61,121 nucleotides of DNA from the IMG/VR virus record IMGVR_UViG_3300025848_000042, positions 1 through 61,121 of that record; one strand, given 5' to 3'. Shown piece by piece: positions 15,026 through 43,917 of this stretch (position 1 is its first letter; each line of letters begins with the position of its first letter). Source of the stretch: a virus (lineage: Duplodnaviria; Caudoviricetes). The position numbers and the translations under genes were made by a program. The notes under the pieces are model-generated. The model saw only the letters and a program-made list of their open reading frames with translations. It made no database searches and was not told where the DNA came from.

Positions 15026-15613
15026 ATGACTGAAAGATTAAATCATAATCTTAATGTAGATACAATCAAAACAATCAAAGATGTGAAGAATATCTTTGAT
15101 ACTATGGAATTGGTTGCTTCTATGGATAAAGATAATCCAAAATATGAAGTCGCAAAGGAATACTTTACCATTCCTTATGTTGCACCTGAACTTAAATTCT
15201 CAACACCACGCAAGAGTATTGAAGAAATCCAACAAGAACTTGAAGATAAGATTGATGCTCTTATAAAGACAACAAAAGAAAAGTTTGAGTATTCCAAAGT
15301 AGTTGCCGAAAAAAGATACAAATACAAGTTTGATAAGATTTTTGAGAACTTTCTGTATGCTCGTGATAAAGGACAGTTTCCACCCAAACTCACTATTACT
15401 ATTGGAGATGGATTGTATGGGAATAATTATGTGACTTCTAACTTTGTGGAAAGTTCTCTTGTAATCAAACAGGGGAAAAAACACGACGGTTATTATACAA
15501 ATGGAAATCGTAGATATTTGAGGTATTATATGCCTGATAAACCAAATGCGATTGTGAGGTTCTTTATGAGAACTTGTCTGGGTTTTTATTGGGTTGATGA
15601 GAAGGACACTTGA
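15026..15613 (+). CDS. Hypothetical protein, paralog of 17419-17997
   Basis: Shared MTERLNHNLNVD...YYMPDKPNAIVRFFM.TCLGFYWVDEKD. Confidence 0.85.
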   Translation: MTERLNHNLNVDTIKTIKDVKNIFDTMELVASMDKDNPKYEVAKEYFTIPYVAPELKFSTPRKSIEEIQQELEDKIDALIKTTKEKFEYSKVVAEKRYKYKFDKIFENFLYARDKGQFPPKLTITIGDGLYGNNYVTSNFVESSLVIKQGKKHDGYYTNGNRRYLRYYMPDKPNAIVRFFMRTCLGFYWVDEKDT

Positions 15614-18545: not shown

Positions 18546-20882
18546 AGAACTGGCACAGAGACACTCCAAATGCCCCTGAGAATGCCTTATAATACTCTCA
18601 TACACAACCAATCCTATGAACCGCAAATCTTCTTCTCTTGACCTTTTCGGTCTTATTCCTATCTTTATGATTTTTGTGGTTGCTCTTATGTTTGTGGGAA
18701 TTCCTCTTACTGGTGTCGGCAGAGTAATCGCAACTCAACAAGCACTCAACCAAGAATGTAAGACCAACTACAACTTCCTTCAAGTTGCTTTTGCTGGTGA
18801 TAATCTTGCTCGTCTTTGCCAAATCAAAAATCAAACGGTGACTATCAAATGACTAACCTTTCCCCCCAAGCACAAGCAATCGTAGATGCTTTTGATGCTG
18901 AATACTATCAGAAAGCAAGAAACCGACAAGATGCTCTTGCTGCTGTTCTTCGTGTTCTTGCTGATAATGTTGCCCCTGATGATTATAAGTGTTTTTATGG
19001 GGACAGAGAATACGACGCAGGAATGGAAGGTCGTAATGATGAAATTCGTGAGGCAATTTTGAGTATTGCTACTGAATTGGAGGCAAACTGATGAAACTCT
19101 ACCGATACAAAAAAGACGGATGCCTCTACAATCTTTATGAGATGTTGATGCCCTATTATGAACTCAAAGCAGTTCCCTATTTTCCAAATCAAGGTATTCT
19201 TGCTAAAAGTAAAAGGAGTATTTCTATGAATGACTTTGAGGTAGTTGCTGAACGATGACTGACGAACAAAAACTCAAACTGCTTCTCAAAGTTCTCAAAG
19301 ACTACGCAGAGATGAAGCACTGCTATAATAAGTATGGGGATGATTTCGATCCAAATGATTATACTAGTGGTGATGTTGCCTTTGATACTGGTGCTGAATG
19401 GGGTGAGATTACCTTTGCCCGCACACTTTTAGAACAAATTGGTGTAGAATTTGAGCATCCTTGTATGAGTGAAGACAAATGACTGAAATTGAAGAACTGA
19501 AAGCACAAATCAAAGTATTGGAAAAGAAACTCTCATTCCTTGAAGAACTGGAAAAAACAAAATCACCAGTAGAAGAAGGATATAAGAAAGTTTATGGTTA
19601 TTATCCTGCTCCTTATGGAGAAGATTGTTATTGGGAATATTTCCAAAATGGATATAAACAAGCACAAAAGGATTATAAGGTAGGAGAGTATCAAGAAACC
19701 GCACAAGAACGAGGAGAACGACTTCATAATGAAATGGAAGAAACTATCAGAATTCACGATGGTTATGGTGTAGTTGATTACAAACCAACTCCAAAAACAC
19801 CAGTAGAAGAAGTATATATGAAAGTTTTTGGACATCCACCTGAATGTGCTCAACGTGGTGTTTGGGATGGTTTCCAAGCAGGTTATAATGCTGCTTATGA
19901 AGAAAAAGTAGTAGAAGAACCAGAAGAGAATGAATGGAAATCTGTTGCTCTTCGTTTTGGTGAAAAGTTGAGTGGATATTTGAGTGATGGTTATTATGAA
20001 CTTTCTCCTGCTGCTTGGTTTAGGTGGGCAGTATTTACTTATGGGAAAGGACAACAAATAAAGAATGCTGTCCGTGAAAGTGTAAAATGGTGTGAAGAGC
20101 ATCCCGAGGAGAGTGTGGAAGATTATTTAACTCCAAGAATGAGGACACTTTGAAAACAGGCACAAGGGCACTTTACAGGTGCCCTTTTTTGATGTATGAT
20201 ACTATTATAGATGAAATCCAAGATGACTGAAACTATTCAACAACTCAAAGAGGATATTGCTATTCTTCAAGAGAAACTACGAAAACTTGAAGAACAAGAC
20301 CCTGAAATGCTACTATTGCGTCAAGGTAAAGTAGATATTGTTGATTACAATCATAGAACTCATTATAGAATTGAATACACCGATAGTTTTTCTGGTGTTT
20401 ATAAGTGGTTTGTGCGAAAATTGGGAGAAATTCCTTTTCTTGAAGAAGTTAGGGATGTAAATGTTTATGCTCCTCTTGAAGAACTTTACCAGAAAGAAGT
20501 AGTGAAACAGAAAGACGATTATCCTTATAAAAAATACACACCAGAAGAAACAGAACAATCCCTGAAAAAAGCATTTAGAGAAGCAGTCAAGCAAGGTGTG
20601 GTTTCGTCTGTTGAGAAACCTACTGATGAAGAAGATAATGATAAGAACTTCAAGAACTCTCTTGACCTTATCAAAGAATGGGGTGAAAAAAATAAACCAA
20701 AAACACTTTATCAAATTTGTATGGAGTGGTGGAATGAAGTGTTTGTAAATCAAATGGACGATAATATTTGTGTTGATGTCCTGGTAAGTAAAATTGATAA
20801 AGAGTTTATTCCACCTTCTTACGATACTAATGATTATCAGTGGAATAAATGTTTGAAAATTATGAGGGATAAGTTGAGGTAG

Positions 20883-20890
20883 TATAAATA
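20883..20890 (+). promoter_or_regulatory. T4-type late promoter
   Basis: Exact TATAAATA. Confidence 0.75.
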
Positions 20891-20894
20891 CAAA

Positions 20895-20953
20895 TGTCTA
20901 TGTGAACCGCAATTCTCTACAGACAAGATTAGGTGCTCTTTGGGGCACCTTTT
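20895..20953 (+). ncRNA. Putative ~58 nt RNA antisense to the leader of the downstream endonuclease gene
   Basis: Lies between a late promoter and terminator AGGTGCTC-TTTG-GGGCACCT-TTT (20931-20953). 20897-20913 is complementary to 20978-20994. Confidence 0.55.
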
Positions 20954-20967
20954 CTGTTATAAACTAT

Positions 20968-20975
20968 TATAAATA
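20968..20975 (+). promoter_or_regulatory. T4-type late promoter for the endonuclease gene
   Basis: Exact TATAAATA 25 nt before the ATG. Confidence 0.8.
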
Positions 20976-21000
20976 GTATTGCGGTTTACATAGAATAACG

Positions 21001-21840
21001 ATGACTTCACAAAGTCCAAGAATTTACACATATAAAATTACCTTTGAAGAAGTTCCATATTACTATTATGGAGTTCATAAGGAAAAGAAATATAATGAGT
21101 ATTATATGGGTTCTCCTGTAACAAACAAATGGTGTTGGGAATTTTATACTCCAAAGAAACAAATACTTCAACTTTTTGACTTTACAGATAAAGGTTGGTT
21201 AGAGGCAAATTTAGTTGAAGATAGATTAATAAATCCATTCTATCAAACTGATAAATGGTGTTTGAACGCAAGTTGTGGTGCTAAAATATCTTTAGAATGT
21301 TTAAGAAATGGTATAAAAACCCAGCAAAAATTAGGTTTAGGATTATTTGGATTAACAAAAGAAGAAAGAAGTAAAATATCTAAAATAAATTATCAAAATG
21401 GTGTTGGTCTTGGGGGACTTACTTTAGAACAAAGAAGTGAAGCAGGTAAAATTGGTGGTGTTATAGGAGGAAGAAAAAATGTTGAAACAGGTCACATACA
21501 AAGTCTTGGTTTAATATCTGGAAAAAGGAATTTAGAAACTGGGTTTATACAAGAACTTGGTAAAAAATGGGGGATAATACATAAAGAAAATAAAACTGGA
21601 ATTTTTTCTCAAACACCAGAGGAATTAAGTGAGGCAGGTAAAAAAGGTTCTTCTAAAAATAAAAAGAATGGAGTTGCTATATTTGCTCTTACAAAAGAAC
21701 AATTAAGTAATCAAGGTAAAAAAACTAACGCACAAAAATGGATGTGTCTTGAAACTGGTTTTATTACTAATCCAGGAAACTTAACAAAATATCAAAAAGC
21801 AAGAGGTATAGACACCTCAAAGAGAAAAAGAATATCATAA
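21001..21840 (+). CDS. Free-standing Seg-like (GIY-YIG-related) homing endonuclease
   Basis: N-terminal IYTYKIT...YYYYGVH...YMGS, then repeated G(L/I)FxLTxEExSxxGK and KNxETGxIQxLG modules. AT-rich relative to neighbours. Confidence 0.7.
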   Translation: MTSQSPRIYTYKITFEEVPYYYYGVHKEKKYNEYYMGSPVTNKWCWEFYTPKKQILQLFDFTDKGWLEANLVEDRLINPFYQTDKWCLNASCGAKISLECLRNGIKTQQKLGLGLFGLTKEERSKISKINYQNGVGLGGLTLEQRSEAGKIGGVIGGRKNVETGHIQSLGLISGKRNLETGFIQELGKKWGIIHKENKTGIFSQTPEELSEAGKKGSSKNKKNGVAIFALTKEQLSNQGKKTNAQKWMCLETGFITNPGNLTKYQKARGIDTSKRKRIS

Positions 21841-21921
21841 GGACACTTCAAAAACTGGAACAAGGGCACTTGAACCTGGTGCCCTGATGCCCTATAATAC
21901 TCTCATACACAAAGAACTCTA

Positions 21922-22557
21922 ATGAACATCAACGGATACGAAATCAAACCCTTTGCTGACCTTGAGGGTGCTTACCTTAAGGGTGCTAACCTTTGGTGTG
22001 CTAACCTTCAGGGTGCTAACCTTAAGGGTGCTAACCTTAAGGGTGCTAACCTTCAGGGTGCTAACCTTCAGGGTGCTAACCTTAAGGGTGCTATCCTTAA
22101 GGGTGCTGACCTTATGAGTGCCAACCTTAAGGGTGCTAACCTTGTGGATGCTAACCTTTATGGTGCTTACCTTCGGGATGCTAACCTTGTGGATGCTAAC
22201 CTTGTGCGTGCTAACCTTTGGTGTGCTATTCTTGTAGGTGCTAACCTTGTGCGTGCTGACCTTCAGGGTGCTGACCTTCGGGATGCTAACCTTTGGGGTG
22301 CTGCACTTGTGTATGCTGACCTTAAGGGTGCTGCACTTGTGTATGCTGACCTTAAGGGTGCTAACCTTTGGTGTGCTAACCTTAGGGAGGTTACTTTTGA
22401 GGGTGCTGACCTTGAGGGTGCTAATCTAAAGGGAACTATTCTTGAGAAGAAAAAAGAACCTCAGGATGATAAAGACCTGAAGATTAAAGAACTTGAAGAA
22501 GAACTGAAGAAATATAAGGATACTCTTAAGGCACTTAAGGCACTTCTGGACACTTGA
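21922..22557 (+). CDS. Pentapeptide repeat protein with C-terminal coiled coil
   Basis: About 33 A(N/D)Lxx repeats followed by [13 protein letters not shown]. Confidence 0.95.
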
Positions 22558-23010: not shown

Positions 23011-23905
23011 CTAAACTAAATCTCTTCAACGCATATTCAACAATAGTTTTGTGCTGGGGAATTGCAATTTTTTTGAACCTTATTTCTAATTGAAATAAAA
23101 TGAAATCAATTCATCTTTTATTTAATTCTTTATTTTCTTGTTCTCATAAATGGGAAATTGTAAAGAGTTTTCCAGTAAAAGAAACAGTTTGGTATGAACT
23201 TGAACCACGATATTATATTGCTGATAAATTGAAATGTATAAAATGTGGTGAAACAAAAATAAAGAAATATGATGGTAAAGATAAAAAGGACACTTGACGA
23301 ACTGGCACAGGGACACTCCAAATGCCCCTGTGATGCCTTATAATACTCTCATACACAAAGGAACTTCAAATGACTAAATGCGTTCGTGACGGAAAAAAAG
23401 ATAATGATTATTGGAATGTTGCTTGATTAACCGATGAGAGAAGAAACACAATCCTTTATTATTGTTGGAGTAATTGTTCTGGTGTTTATTGTTCTGTTTG
23501 CTTTTAGTTACAACTATGAGAAAACTGAATGTCTTGCCGAAGGTGGAAAATGGATTTCTGGTATGATTGGTGGTAATTATTCTTATTTTTGTATTCCAAA
23601 ATGAAATTCCCTAATTACGCACTTGGATTATTCACAGGTTTCTGCCTTGCAGGTCTGTACTTTATAATTCCTGGTATTATTGAAAGTTTTCAGCATTCAC
23701 CAGAACCACAAAAAATGCAGAGTACCTTTCAGGTTGTTGATAATTATGAAGGATGCGATGTTGTCCGTTGGAACAATCCTATGCTTGCTGAGTACAAGTA
23801 TTTCGTAAAGTGCCCGAAATGAGGGACACCTGAAGAACCGTCACACCAGGGCACCTATGAGTGTCCTTTATGGTCTATAATACTCTCATACACAAAGGAA
23901 CTCTT

Positions 23906-24463
23906 ATGAAAGTCAACGGTTACAAAATCAAACCCTTTGCTAACCTTCAGGGTGCTAACCTTTCTCGTGCTTACCTTGAGGGTGCTAATCTTGAGGGTGC
24001 TAACCTTGTGAATGCTAACCTTGAGGGTGCTTACCTTCGGGGTGCTAACCTTCGGGGTGCTGACTTTTATGGTGCTAATCTTGAGGGTGCTAACCTTATG
24101 GGTGCTGAACTTGAGGGTGCTAACCTTAGGGGTGCTATCCTTGATGGTGCTGACCTTAGGTATGCTATCCTTGATGGTGCTGACCTTAGGTATGCTATCC
24201 TTGATGGTGCTGACCTTAGGTATGCTATCCTTTGGAATGCTAACCTTCAGGGTGCTAACCTTCAGGGTGCTAACCTTTATTGTGCTAACCTTCGGGATGC
24301 TAACCTTGAGGGTGCTAACGTAACTGGAACCATTCTTGAGAAGAAAGAAGAACCTCAAGATGATACTTCACTTTCTCAAAAGGTCAAAGAACTTGAAGAA
24401 GAACTGAAGAAATATAAGAACAAATTCAATCAACTCAAAGAACTCTTAAATGAAACTCACTGA
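23906..24463 (+). CDS. Pentapeptide repeat protein with C-terminal coiled coil
   Basis: A(N/D)Lxx repeats with the same end caps as 21922-22557 (NGY.IKPFA, GTILEKK.EPQDD). Confidence 0.95.
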   Translation: MKVNGYKIKPFANLQGANLSRAYLEGANLEGANLVNANLEGAYLRGANLRGADFYGANLEGANLMGAELEGANLRGAILDGADLRYAILDGADLRYAILDGADLRYAILWNANLQGANLQGANLYCANLRDANLEGANVTGTILEKKEEPQDDTSLSQKVKELEEELKKYKNKFNQLKELLNETH

Positions 24464-41791: not shown

Positions 41792-42094
41792 GGATTATGA
41801 CAATCGCACAAAAACGAGTAGTTCAGGTCACACTAGACATCGAGTGTTATGATGACCTTGACATTGAGAATATGGACTGGAAAGAACTTCTAGAACTTGA
41901 AGGTGACGAGAAGATTATCTCTACAACAATTAAAGACCTAGACCCATTCCTCTATTGACCCATAAGACCCCTCTACGTCTCATAAGGTGTCTACCCCTAT
42001 GCCAGTTCATAAGGCGGCACACAGAGGCACACAGAGGGGTCTCAGAGTCTTAAGGTATTTGGAGTCAAATATTTGTTTCTTATAAATAATAACA

Positions 42095-42300
42095 AGAAGA
42101 ACATTTGAATTATAAGTTTTTGAGTCTTCGCACAATACCTTCCCAGAAGCATCGACAGGCGGTTCACCCGATGAGTATAAGACTTCGCCAGTGGATTAAA
42201 GGCATTCCCTGCATCTAAGACTCGAAGAGTATAAGACAAATTGAATTCTTAAACCAAACTCAAACTTAATAAAAAGCAGGACGATTCCTGACAGATTTTT
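42095..42300 (+). ncRNA. Putative structured late RNA
   Basis: TATAAATA at 42081 with no + strand ORF after it; four nested stems across 42119-42226. Confidence 0.45.
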
Positions 42301-42429
42301 TATGTTAAAAATTTGTCACTTAGGAGTCATATTTTAGTGTTTATGTGACAGTGGATGAAGTGGCACATAAGGTATTGCAGAAGACCCTGAGACCCTGTTA
42401 CATTACATTCGTACCTGAGACACCACCTC

Positions 42430-42690
42430 ATGACCACTGCATCCAAATCTCTTCGCATTGCGGATTCAATTTCCAGCGAACCCTATGCTTTTCCTGGTGG
42501 GTATCCTCGGTTCGCTATTCTTTCTGATGGAGAGTGTCTCTGTCATAAGTGTTGTGAAACTGAACGCAAATGGATTGGTACGACGACTGGTTCCGATGGA
42601 TGGACCGTTGTATCTGATGCCATCAACTGGGAAGATTCAGACCTCTACTGTGGGCATTGTGGTGCTCAAATTGAATCTGCCTATGCTTGA
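42430..42690 (+). CDS. Small zinc-finger-like protein
   Basis: AFPGGYP, CHKC and CGHCG. Confidence 0.65.
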   Translation: MTTASKSLRIADSISSEPYAFPGGYPRFAILSDGECLCHKCCETERKWIGTTTGSDGWTVVSDAINWEDSDLYCGHCGAQIESAYA

Positions 42691-43207
42691 GACACCCTAA
42701 GAACCGTCACAAGGGGTCTTGATTCCGCTCAAGACTCCTGCCATACTACCTTTGTTCCTGAGACACCACCTCAAATGCTCATTACTGGTGATGACATGAT
42801 TCATTTCATTAGATACGTTCATGATTTCTATGGACCCAATGGAATCTATGATATGAATGTCACAAAGGACATGATTATGAATGCAACCATGAAGTATCTG
42901 ACTACATCAGGTACTAGATTTAATGGTGATAGTTATGACCGTGAGATGGTACGTGATATTATGATTGAAACCTATAATCTGGTAGCAGTCTAAGAACTAA
43001 TCCAACAAATCTTTATCATTTTCTTCAATCATCATGAGCATCTACACTGACAATGGTTACGCAAACCGCGAAGAGTATCTGAATGAACTCCGTGAAGAGT
43101 ATGGTGCTGATCTGGTCAACACCCTGATCACGGTTCTGCCTGCAAGTGAGGACTTTGACGGTCTTATCACTTCGCTGGAAGATGCAATGGACGGTTTCTA
43201 AATAATA

Positions 43208-43261
43208 GTGCTTATGTGTCGCAACTAAAGCAACATTGAGGGGCAAAAATGCCCCTCTTTT
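43208..43261 (+). ncRNA. Putative ~54 nt RNA antisense to the leader of the downstream endonuclease gene
   Basis: Follows TCTAAATA (43197-43204) and ends at terminator GAGGGGCA-AAAA-TGCCCCTC-TTTT. 43212-43223 is the exact complement of 43276-43287. Confidence 0.55.
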
Positions 43262-43296
43262 AGCATAAATAACTATGCGACACATAAAGTAGAACT

Positions 43297-43917
43297 ATGG
43301 TAAATCCTAATAGGTATTATACTTACGCATATTTGCGGGAAGATAGAACTCCTTATTACATTGGTAAAGGATCAGGAAAACGATTATTTTATAAGTATGG
43401 AAAAAATTGCAAACCACCAAAAGATAGAAGTAGAATAATTAAACTCAAACAAAATTTAACTGAAGCAGAAGCATTTAAGCACGAGAAATATATGATTGCA
43501 GTTTTTGGTAAAAAATATGATGGAACTGGTATTTTGATGAACATTTCTGATGGTGGTAATGCTCCACCTATTATTTGTGGAAACAATCATCATATGAAAA
43601 CTGAAGAATATAAAAAAAGAGTCAGTGAAAAACTTACTGGAAGAAAAGGACATCCTGCTTGGAATAAAGGTATTTCCATTAAAGAAGAAATGAGACAAAA
43701 AATTACAGGAGAAGGTAATGGTGTTGCTCAGTGGTGGAAACTTACATTCTTTGATGGTAGAGAACTTATAATGTGTGGATTATCTAATTGGTGTAAAGAA
43801 AATGGATATGATAAATCAAAAATTTCTGAGGTATATTATAAAAAAAATGGAAGAACTAAACATAAGGACATTGTGACAGTTGAGAAACTGGCACACCCAC
43901 CAAACCATACCATTTGA
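43297..43917 (+). CDS. GIY-YIG-like homing endonuclease with NUMOD3-like motif
   Basis: YYTYAY...PYYIGKG, L.N..DGG, PAWNKG. Late promoter CATAAATA at 43264-43271. Confidence 0.8.
   Translation: MVNPNRYYTYAYLREDRTPYYIGKGSGKRLFYKYGKNCKPPKDRSRIIKLKQNLTEAEAFKHEKYMIAVFGKKYDGTGILMNISDGGNAPPIICGNNHHMKTEEYKKRVSEKLTGRKGHPAWNKGISIKEEMRQKITGEGNGVAQWWKLTFFDGRELIMCGLSNWCKENGYDKSKISEVYYKKNGRTKHKDIVTVEKLAHPPNHTI

Follow-up and report, generated by a model that had tools for sequence, protein, structure and literature searches.

How can a phage homing endonuclease be expressed strongly enough to spread, and not so strongly that it damages the genome that carries it? The known answer in T4-type phages is a hairpin that acts in cis on the endonuclease mRNA. 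The same question is raised by positions 20883–21840 of a 61,121-nucleotide (nt) stretch of viral DNA (Caudoviricetes; IMG/VR record IMGVR_UViG_3300025848_000042, positions 1 to 61,121; this whole stretch is called the window here), where sequence reading and comparisons reveal a free-standing homing-endonuclease gene that forms a mobile cassette in a T4-like cyanophage. The cassette's leader holds two complementary arms, each preceded by a late-promoter-like box, with an intrinsic terminator between them. The anatomy of this leader, its conservation, the covariation of its helices H1, H2 and T1, the carriage of the first box (P1) by the cassette and the specificity of each arm for its cognate partner are established here. 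The explanation we propose joins two routes of control through the same pairing, one in cis and one in trans by way of a predicted small RNA, and as a whole we give it an even chance of being right.

Anatomy of the endonuclease leader

The cassette at this locus (copy 1) has the following features, all on the + strand:

20880–20882, +: TAG stop codon of the upstream gene (open reading frame (ORF) 20211–20882), the left junction of the inserted cassette
20883–20890, +: P1, a late-promoter-like box, TATAAATA, the first bases of the cassette, directly after the TAG
20895–20925, +: H2, a stem–loop closed by TGTCT (20895–20899) and AGACA (20921–20925), with most of the antisense segment in its loop
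20896–20955, +: predicted small RNA, ~60 nt, starting after P1 and ending in the U tract of T1, with both ends predicted
20897–20913, +: 5′ arm (antisense segment) of the long-range helix H1, recognised by complementarity and covariation
20931–20955, +: T1, an intrinsic terminator hairpin and U tract, recognised by a terminator scan and covariation
20968–20975, +: P2, a late-promoter-like box, TATAAATA, between the arms, its TAAATA invariant in relatives
20978–20994, +: 3′ arm of H1, recognised by complementarity, spanning translation-start positions −23 to −7
21001–21840, +: free-standing homing endonuclease gene, 279 amino acids (aa), with a match to PHROG 314

A preliminary description of this DNA had already placed the boxes, the arms, H2, T1 and the ATG at 21001, and on rereading of 20700–22000 all of these coordinates hold, as does the pairing that it gave for the arms: 16 Watson–Crick pairs and one G–U, with 6 bases between the 3′ arm and the ATG. 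The start of the small RNA is placed by the rule for T4-like phages, about 6 nt after the box. The terminator scan reports a hairpin at 20931–20950 with eight pairs, five of them G–C, a loop of 4 and the tail TTTCTGTTAT. Directly 5′ of P2, a 10-nt insertion resembling TTATAAACT is found at 20956–20967 and likewise in L008, L009, L018, L028 and other loci (numbers with L are our labels for the sequences compared); in sequence it resembles an incomplete copy of the P2 box.

A chance origin of the complementary arms is ruled out by three results. At up to three mismatches the 17-nt arm has two matches in the 61 kb, itself and its reverse complement, where 0.14 are expected, and two or more matches were seen in only 1 of 100 shuffles. 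The segment 20883–21030 folds at −47.7 kcal/mol against −22.7 ± 3.3 kcal/mol for shuffled sequence (z = −7.6; 0 of 200 shuffles). The third result is the covariation of the arms in two alignments of relatives, A2 and A3, given below.

The first promoter-like box is part of the mobile insert

Twenty IMG/VR loci with a homolog of the upstream gene were compared. At five of them a leader and endonuclease gene follow directly after the stop codon, and 15 have no cassette. Three of the occupied loci carry the window's endonuclease family, while L097 carries a GIY-YIG-like gene and L098 an HNH-like gene, so that a single site hosts three nuclease families. The leaders found after this gene, which ends in ...KLR (L097, L098, L100–L102 and the window), are of the same kind, each with its own arms.

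At all 15 loci that lack a cassette the junction is free of the box, and P1 therefore belongs to the cassette. At L095, where the site is empty, both flanks of the window are present with no insert: the gene ends ...ttgagg TAA ggacactt..., and the same promoter element and pentapeptide-repeat gene follow. The insert can therefore be delimited as 20880/20883 to 21837/21840; it starts with P1 and finishes with the last codon of the endonuclease.

As a side observation, in a contig of a relative in data set X2 the letters matching 20882 and 21882 are separated by 39 others, in a match of low likeness with a side of 30 letters; it is a weak hint of an empty site in that relative.

Conservation and covariation of the leader

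Ninety gene copies with at least 160 nt of upstream DNA gave 75 unique upstream sequences, and the order of the leader parts is the same in 74 of them, the exception being L017. With L017 left out, the remaining 74 rows were aligned with MAFFT (alignment A2). Minimum free energy (MFE) folds contain the long-range helix in 17 of 18 sequences (the first 17 loci and the window). RNAalifold predicted no pairs on A2 because indels offset the arms, and for that reason the structure of the window was imposed on A2 and a covariance model, R1, was used. R1 has 129 matches in 100 sources (938 kb), and alignment A3 contains 114 distinct rows.

In A2, 81.8% of the cells of H1 and T1 are paired, compared with 69.2% after shuffling and 36–53% in slid controls, and 249 cells show a change on both sides compared with 97 in shuffles (0 of 500 shuffles). 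In A3, 87.0% are paired and 23 of 25 pairs have changes on both sides. The central pairs of A3 occur as three to four pair types with 0–2 unpaired rows of 114; the central H1 pair 48/134, for example, is CG in 60 rows, GC in 30, UA in 22 and AU in 2, with no row unpaired. The T1 helix is 93–96% paired in the two alignments, with both-side changes in 7–8 of its eight pairs (96.2% and 8/8 in A3). Because A3 was fitted to H1 and T1 it leans towards them, and H2 lies outside that fit; H2 is nevertheless paired in 90.7% of its cells in A2 and 89.8% in A3, where its pair types are CG 63 / UA 36 and AU 44 / GC 28 / GU 22. Arm covariation in homologs, which the preliminary description had named as a check on its proposal, is thus very strong in both alignments.

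TAAATA, the hexamer of P2, shows no variation in the 74 rows of A2 or in the 114 distinct rows of A3; P2 lies 2 nt ahead of the first column of the 3′ arm in 109 of 114 rows, and the 3′ arm stops 6 nt short of the ATG in 98 of 114 distinct rows. At P1 each column of the hexamer is at least 90% conserved in A2, and [AC]TAAATA stands there in 73 of 74 rows (L075 is without it), with the same two variants, A and C, at P1 and P2. In 109 of 113 rows P1 and H2 are 5 nt apart, and A2 shows no conservation 5′ of P1. Searching the whole window against Rfam returned no family at the gathering score, and 20800–21100 gave only chance matches to microRNA precursors.

One leader module before several nuclease families

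IMG/VR was scanned with the terminator–P2 consensus alone, CCTTTTCT-NN-TATAAATA, which occurs in at least 120 stretches. The matches listed, to which the counts in this paragraph refer, hold 105 unique leaders. In 93 of these an ORF of at least 50 aa begins 22–30 nt beyond the box; in the remaining 12 the stored DNA breaks off or the genes that follow have decayed. By their N-termini the 93 ORFs group into six clusters, with 27, 24, 22, 17, 2 and 1 members, which comprise two GIY-YIG-like clusters, the window's family, an HNH-like cluster, a Pfam HNH cluster and a Pfam GIY-YIG singleton, and NUMOD3 repeats are found in four of the six cluster representatives. More than 100 distinct IMG/VR leaders share the layout, before at least six nuclease families. 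These leaders were chosen by their T1–P2 sequence only, P1 having played no part in the choice, and P1 is present in 101 of the 102 that have enough upstream DNA, 63–76 nt ahead of P2.

The window itself contains a second cassette:

43178–43917, +: copy 2 cassette, with a different, GIY-YIG-like endonuclease of 206 aa (R1 match; ORF 43297–43917)

Its leader is matched by R1 at 43178–43299 (65.7 bits, E = 3.6e-9) and repeats the order of copy 1, with CTAAATA at 43198, an arm, a terminator, ATAAATA at 43265, the other arm and the ATG at 43297; its arms are unlike those of copy 1. Among cultured phages the module is carried by S-SRM01, with six leaders, by B23, with three, and by S-B68, a marine phage of Synechococcus WH7803. 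In a 14.4-kb IMG/VR stretch (L126), seven R1 matches lie within ~12 kb, an array of endonuclease cassettes. Five cultured marine or estuarine cyanophages, S-B68, S-CREM2, Sf-CH5, ACG-2014f and S-N03, form a graded series before related endonucleases, from the full architecture including P1 in S-B68 (L245) to a box alone in ACG-2014f (L246) and no leader element in S-N03 (L247); the two middle members are taken up below.

Late-promoter-like boxes in the window

The window has 4 copies of the octamer TATAAATA, against 3.4 expected; since this count is not above chance, the case for promoters rests on other evidence. All 15 copies of the heptamer [AC]TAAATA are on the + strand, with none on the − strand. 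Coding sequence makes up 82% of the window, yet 12 of the 15 are intergenic; eight lie 17–43 nt upstream of an ATG, and two are the P1 boxes of the two cassettes. Given this strand and intergenic bias, the heptamer appears to be avoided except where a promoter makes sense. On these data and on general background we take CTAAATA to be a late-promoter variant; a literature search for it in Syn9 found no paper. For cyanophage S-PM2 the late promoter is given as NATAAATA (PMC2984593). One further box, ATAAATA at 42082, is followed by ~350 nt with no ORF of at least 45 aa until the ATG at 42430, and no Rfam family is found there at the gathering score; 42082–42430 could be a late non-coding transcript.

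The predicted small RNA and its target

The predicted RNA at 20896–20955 folds into two hairpins at −20.0 kcal/mol (z = −3.6; 0 of 200 shuffles), and two hairpins are likewise found in 90 of 90 homologous predicted P1–T1 RNAs, which are 48–61 nt long. The first 60 nt of the predicted P2 mRNA are unstructured (−3.0 kcal/mol, z = 0.1). Complementarity between the small RNA and the start of this mRNA extends over 14–17 base pairs (bp), the duplex beginning at nucleotide 1 of the predicted mRNA in 90 of 90 leaders and ending ~5–6 nt upstream of the AUG in 59 of 90. A duplex end at that distance falls inside the ribosome footprint, which makes a block to translation a simpler outcome than stabilisation of the mRNA.

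Each arm is specific for its own leader. The 90 cognate arm–leader duplexes range from −19.1 to −27.0 kcal/mol (mean −23.5), and non-cognate pairs average −11.4 kcal/mol, 20% of them reaching −15. For the two cassettes of the window the predicted net binding is −20.1 (copy 1) and −13.3 kcal/mol (copy 2) with the cognate leader, and −6.9 and −5.3 kcal/mol crosswise. Among co-resident cassettes of different nuclease families, none of 100 ordered non-cognate pairs reaches −17 kcal/mol, against 7.6% between genomes (binomial 3.5e-4), and 14 of 2000 permutations were as low, in a test that takes IMG/VR stretches, which are partial, as genomes and whose pairs are dependent, many of them coming from S-SRM01 and L126. 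Avoidance of DNA repeats fails to explain the differences between arms, because co-resident leaders do share the sequence from the terminator to P2. This orthogonality, greater than expected, mildly favours action in trans.

H2 points in the same direction, to a free RNA: it covaries although it and the base of H1 compete for pairing, and a hairpin acting only in cis would have no use for it. A discrete small RNA is in keeping with four results: that P1 travels with the cassette, that 101 of 102 leaders have it, that H2 covaries and that co-resident cassettes have orthogonal arms. Three things that a small RNA acting in trans would need are present: a promoter of its own (P1) and a terminator of its own (T1), both at the level of motifs, and a complementary target that is predicted to be accessible.

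Proposed control in cis and in trans

In the mechanism that we propose, the arms would pair as H1, over 14–17 bp, and bury positions −23 to −7 of the endonuclease mRNA so that ribosomes could not start. By the cis route, a transcript from upstream, or one from P1 that escapes T1, would carry both arms and be translationally silent; since T1 stands between the arms, only such read-through RNA would carry both. Only RNA begun at the inner late promoter P2, which is without the 5′ arm, would be translatable, as in the known T4-type logic. We are confident that H1 blocks translation of read-through RNA in this way.

By the trans route, P1 and T1 would delimit a two-hairpin RNA of 48–61 nt, made late and from the same kind of promoter as the mRNA. 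The antisense segment displayed in its loop would pair with the P2 mRNA at its unstructured 5′ end, limiting translation late in infection, every cassette having a ‘private’ arm sequence of its own. Judged from its motifs and their conservation, a discrete late small RNA is probably made from P1 to T1; that it goes on to repress in trans is a proposition for which we see the chances as evenly balanced. The widest form of the proposal, to which we give slightly less than an even chance, is that free-standing homing endonucleases of T4-like cyanophages, of any nuclease family, travel with a leader for a private late small RNA that would pair in trans only with its own mRNA. Arms would then be hypervariable, and orthogonal within a genome, and the selfish gene would bring with it a repressor matched to its own dose.

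Several observations weigh against this explanation. In their own fold, the predicted small RNAs have ~58% of the duplex-forming bases paired, leaving a mean of 42% unpaired. Population structure could contribute to the orthogonality of the arms, in addition to the dependence of the pairs compared. Arm cores differ at 0.31–0.59 of sites, compared with synonymous codon differences of 0.08–0.17, and this fast divergence was rejected as evidence of diversifying selection because leaders are shuffled relative to coding sequences: L036 and L042 have coding starts that are 97% identical and leaders that are unrelated. The window leader has no GGAG-like Shine–Dalgarno sequence in 20976–21000, so that sequestration of a ribosome-binding site rests there solely on the distance to the AUG; AAGAG is found at about −12 in other clades. 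Two RNA-library runs, with shares of 0.05–0.06, contain only assembled contigs of relatives, 85–99% alike, which carry no information on transcript starts, ends or levels. It is from motifs that we infer firing of P1 and P2, termination at T1 and accumulation of the small RNA; repression by pairing is likewise inferred.

The strongest alternative is that control is in cis only, which we regard as possible though doubtful. The helix would silence read-through RNA as in T4 I-TevI or Aeh1 mobE, T1 would end the upstream operon and P2 would supply the translatable late mRNA; P1 would be retained as the end of the cassette, as a source of stop codons for the upstream ORF or as a promoter that is weak or of no consequence, and a short RNA from P1, if made, would have no regulatory effect. 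This mechanism is known for phage homing endonucleases (PMC2988022) and the same reading has been given for metagenomic cyanophage-like endonuclease leaders (PMC2677866). It suffices to account for H1, T1 and P2, and the MFE structure of the P1 read-through transcript is H1 with T1 nested in it (−47.7 kcal/mol). Two members of the graded series speak for it as well: S-CREM2 (L249) has strong arms, T1 and P2 with one mismatch in its P1 box, and Sf-CH5 (L248), which lacks both T1 and P1, has a short hairpin of the classical type that carries TATAAATA in its loop. As both keep their arms, P1 is not required for retention of the helix. In the window, L001 and L002, moreover, P1 overlaps or abuts the upstream stop codon. 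Supply of stop codons, however, would allow TAA, TAG or TGA in any arrangement and not one invariant hexamer, and control in cis only leaves unexplained why [AC]TAAATA, a heptamer otherwise avoided, occurs in 101 of 102 leaders at a fixed 5 nt from H2, why H2 covaries when it is present only while H1 is unformed, and why co-resident cassettes avoid arms that cross-pair. The known cis mechanism explains the helix unaided and very likely operates here too.

A second alternative, which we consider improbable, is promoter interference, in which polymerases from P1 would pause or terminate at T1, occlude P2 and so lower transcription of the endonuclease gene, the complementarity acting in cis only. 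The spacing suits it, with tandem boxes 63–76 nt apart and T1 abutting P2 (the U tract ends 5–18 bp before the box) in at least 120 IMG/VR stretches, but it gives no reason for a covarying H2 loop that displays antisense bases, nor for orthogonal arms. Least likely of all is that the duplex of small RNA and mRNA stabilises the mRNA against 5′-end-dependent decay or guides its processing, as an activator or timer and not a repressor: in all 90 leaders the duplex does start with the first nucleotide of the predicted P2 mRNA, and an antisense RNA protecting mRNA from RNase E in cyanophage infection is on record (PMC3113571), but a duplex that ends ~5–6 nt before the AUG (59/90 leaders; 98/114 distinct rows) makes blocking the simpler outcome.

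Relation to known systems

Separate promoter and terminator motifs around the 5′ arm, on which the preliminary description had built the idea of an RNA like a type I antitoxin, are real and conserved as anatomy, and the comparison with antitoxins is an analogy only, because the target is a 279-aa nuclease and the RNA lies in tandem on the same strand. In type I toxin–antitoxin systems, too, an RNA pairs around the translation start of an mRNA whose protein does harm when produced in excess. Those systems are defined by a small hydrophobic peptide and an overlapping or divergent RNA, whereas the cassette has a site-specific nuclease and a tandem RNA, and it holds no evidence of post-segregational killing.

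A comparable layout is that of the c4 RNA of phages P1 and P7 and the CI RNA of P4, which are antisense RNAs encoded upstream of their target on the same strand and pair with its ribosome-binding region through an inverted repeat. Those RNAs are processed out of an operon transcript and regulate immunity functions, whereas the cyanophage RNA would start and end at a promoter and terminator of its own, would belong to the late phase of a lytic phage and would have a mobile nuclease as its target.

The closest precedent is the hairpin with a late promoter inside it that controls I-TevI, I-TevII, I-TevIII, segB and Aeh1 mobE (PMC2988022; PMC3014915); here and in the rest of this section, cited papers are compared by the parts of their text that were accessible. 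These genes (T4 I-TevI, I-TevII, I-TevIII and segB, and Aeh1 mobE) have in common with the cyanophage leader an inverted repeat over the start region, a promoter of the TATAAATA type between its arms and a homing endonuclease. The cyanophage leader differs in its loop of ~65 nt with a strong terminator, in P1 upstream of the 5′ arm and in a separate covarying stem–loop, and in the accessible text on the T4 and Aeh1 cases we found no description of a second upstream box, a loop terminator or a separate stem–loop.

In metagenomic data, Dassa et al. (2009) found hairpins in 15 of 16 5′ regions of cyanophage-like endonucleases, ten of them with TATAAATA (PMC2677866). Two conserved motifs pair in the stem, the hairpins precede different types of endonuclease and the regulatory reading given is purely one in cis (PMC2677866). 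These hairpins very likely belong to the same leader family or to a sister family. The text of that paper mentions no second box, loop terminator or small RNA, and its Figure 4A and Supplementary Figure S4 may show more. With the figures of PMC2677866 excepted, we found no literature that describes a small RNA of this kind or the bracketing of a 5′ arm by P1 and T1. Known, then, is the hairpin with an internal late promoter; what is added here is the terminator in the loop, P1 at the start of the cassette and the covarying stem–loop of a free RNA.

Two other phage RNAs invite comparison. StxS is a short RNA with regulatory activity that runs from a phage late promoter to an immediate terminator (PMC7547250); it arises as a side product of antitermination control in a lambdoid prophage and acts on targets in the host, whereas the target here would be the leader of the adjacent gene. 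CfrI of S-PM2 is an antisense RNA of ~225 nt on the opposite strand across psbA and F-CphI (PMC2984593), and shares with the present case the link between a non-coding RNA and a cyanophage homing endonuclease gene. The F-CphI leader of S-PM2 (L235, 530–600) has a terminator hairpin and TATAAATA, with no complementary arms and no R1 match, and for these two reasons S-PM2 was rejected as a source of published transcript data for the leader.

According to a 2010 review, no small trans-acting regulatory RNA from T4 had been functionally characterised (PMC3014915). If the small RNA is real, it would be the first such regulator for T4-like phages and, if it acts as proposed, the first family of trans-acting small RNAs for T4-type phages and for homing endonucleases. 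It would also provide a natural set of short, orthogonal RNA–leader pairs, and an example of a mobile element with a repressor matched to the dose of its own gene. Even if control were in cis only, the covariation places this leader, absent from Rfam, among the regulatory RNA structures with the best support in cyanophages.

The endonuclease protein

The 279-aa protein encoded at 21001–21840 matches PHROG 314, ‘homing endonuclease’, with E = 4.8e-9; Pfam returned no family for it or for its relative L197. A tblastn search of GenBank phages found ten records, with full-length relatives in S-SRM01, B3 and B23 at 44–46% identity, and the last ~49 residues match S-PM2p181, the ORF immediately after F-CphI. 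In IMG/VR there are 207 relatives, of which the best 80 were kept (19 in an earlier pass). An alignment of 13 relatives (A1) shows a conserved N-terminal domain of ~97 residues, repeats of varying number in the middle of the protein and a conserved C-terminal domain of ~45 residues.

An AlphaFold2 model built on A1 has a mean predicted local distance difference test (pLDDT) score of 64.7, with the N-terminal domain below 50, and a Foldseek search of the PDB with this model, in which the N-terminal domain is poor, gave nothing at E ≤ 0.001; the A1 profile had no match among PDB sequences at E up to 10. In the ESM Atlas the nearest named clusters to residues 1–100 are GIY-YIG/SegE (score 0.95), and the ten best named matches are in those families; template modelling (TM) scores by query are 0.70–0.76 and one row reaches the bar for PF01541, which makes this a lead and not an alignment. 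On the strength of that lead, the protein may be a divergent GIY-YIG-like free-standing homing endonuclease.

Resident sequences around the cassette

Two elements flank the cassette and the gene after which it is inserted:

20172–20200: sigma-70-like promoter 5′ of the upstream gene
21841–21898, +: resident PeSL-like element (GGACACTT..GGAACAAGG, a hairpin and TTGAAC-17-TATAAT), outside the cassette and driving the next gene, also present at L095

The PeSL-like element includes a sigma-70-like site at 21870–21898. Its motif, GGACACTT-N4-AAC-N-GG-N-ACA-NGG followed by a hairpin and TTGAAC-17-TATAAT, has 19 copies in the window where none is expected; further copies, all intergenic, lie for example at 15604, 16429, 18536, 20143, 22548 and 23288. 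The repeat resembles the PeSL promoter–terminator cassettes of T4-type phages (PMC4122927, PMC2839356). Endonuclease cassettes of the window's family often stand directly 5′ of a PeSL-like element, which may be their landing site or target. Downstream, two paralogous pentapeptide-repeat genes (21922–22557 and 23861–24463) encode proteins with similar charged C-terminal tails, the first of them matching PF00805 with E = 1.1e-51.

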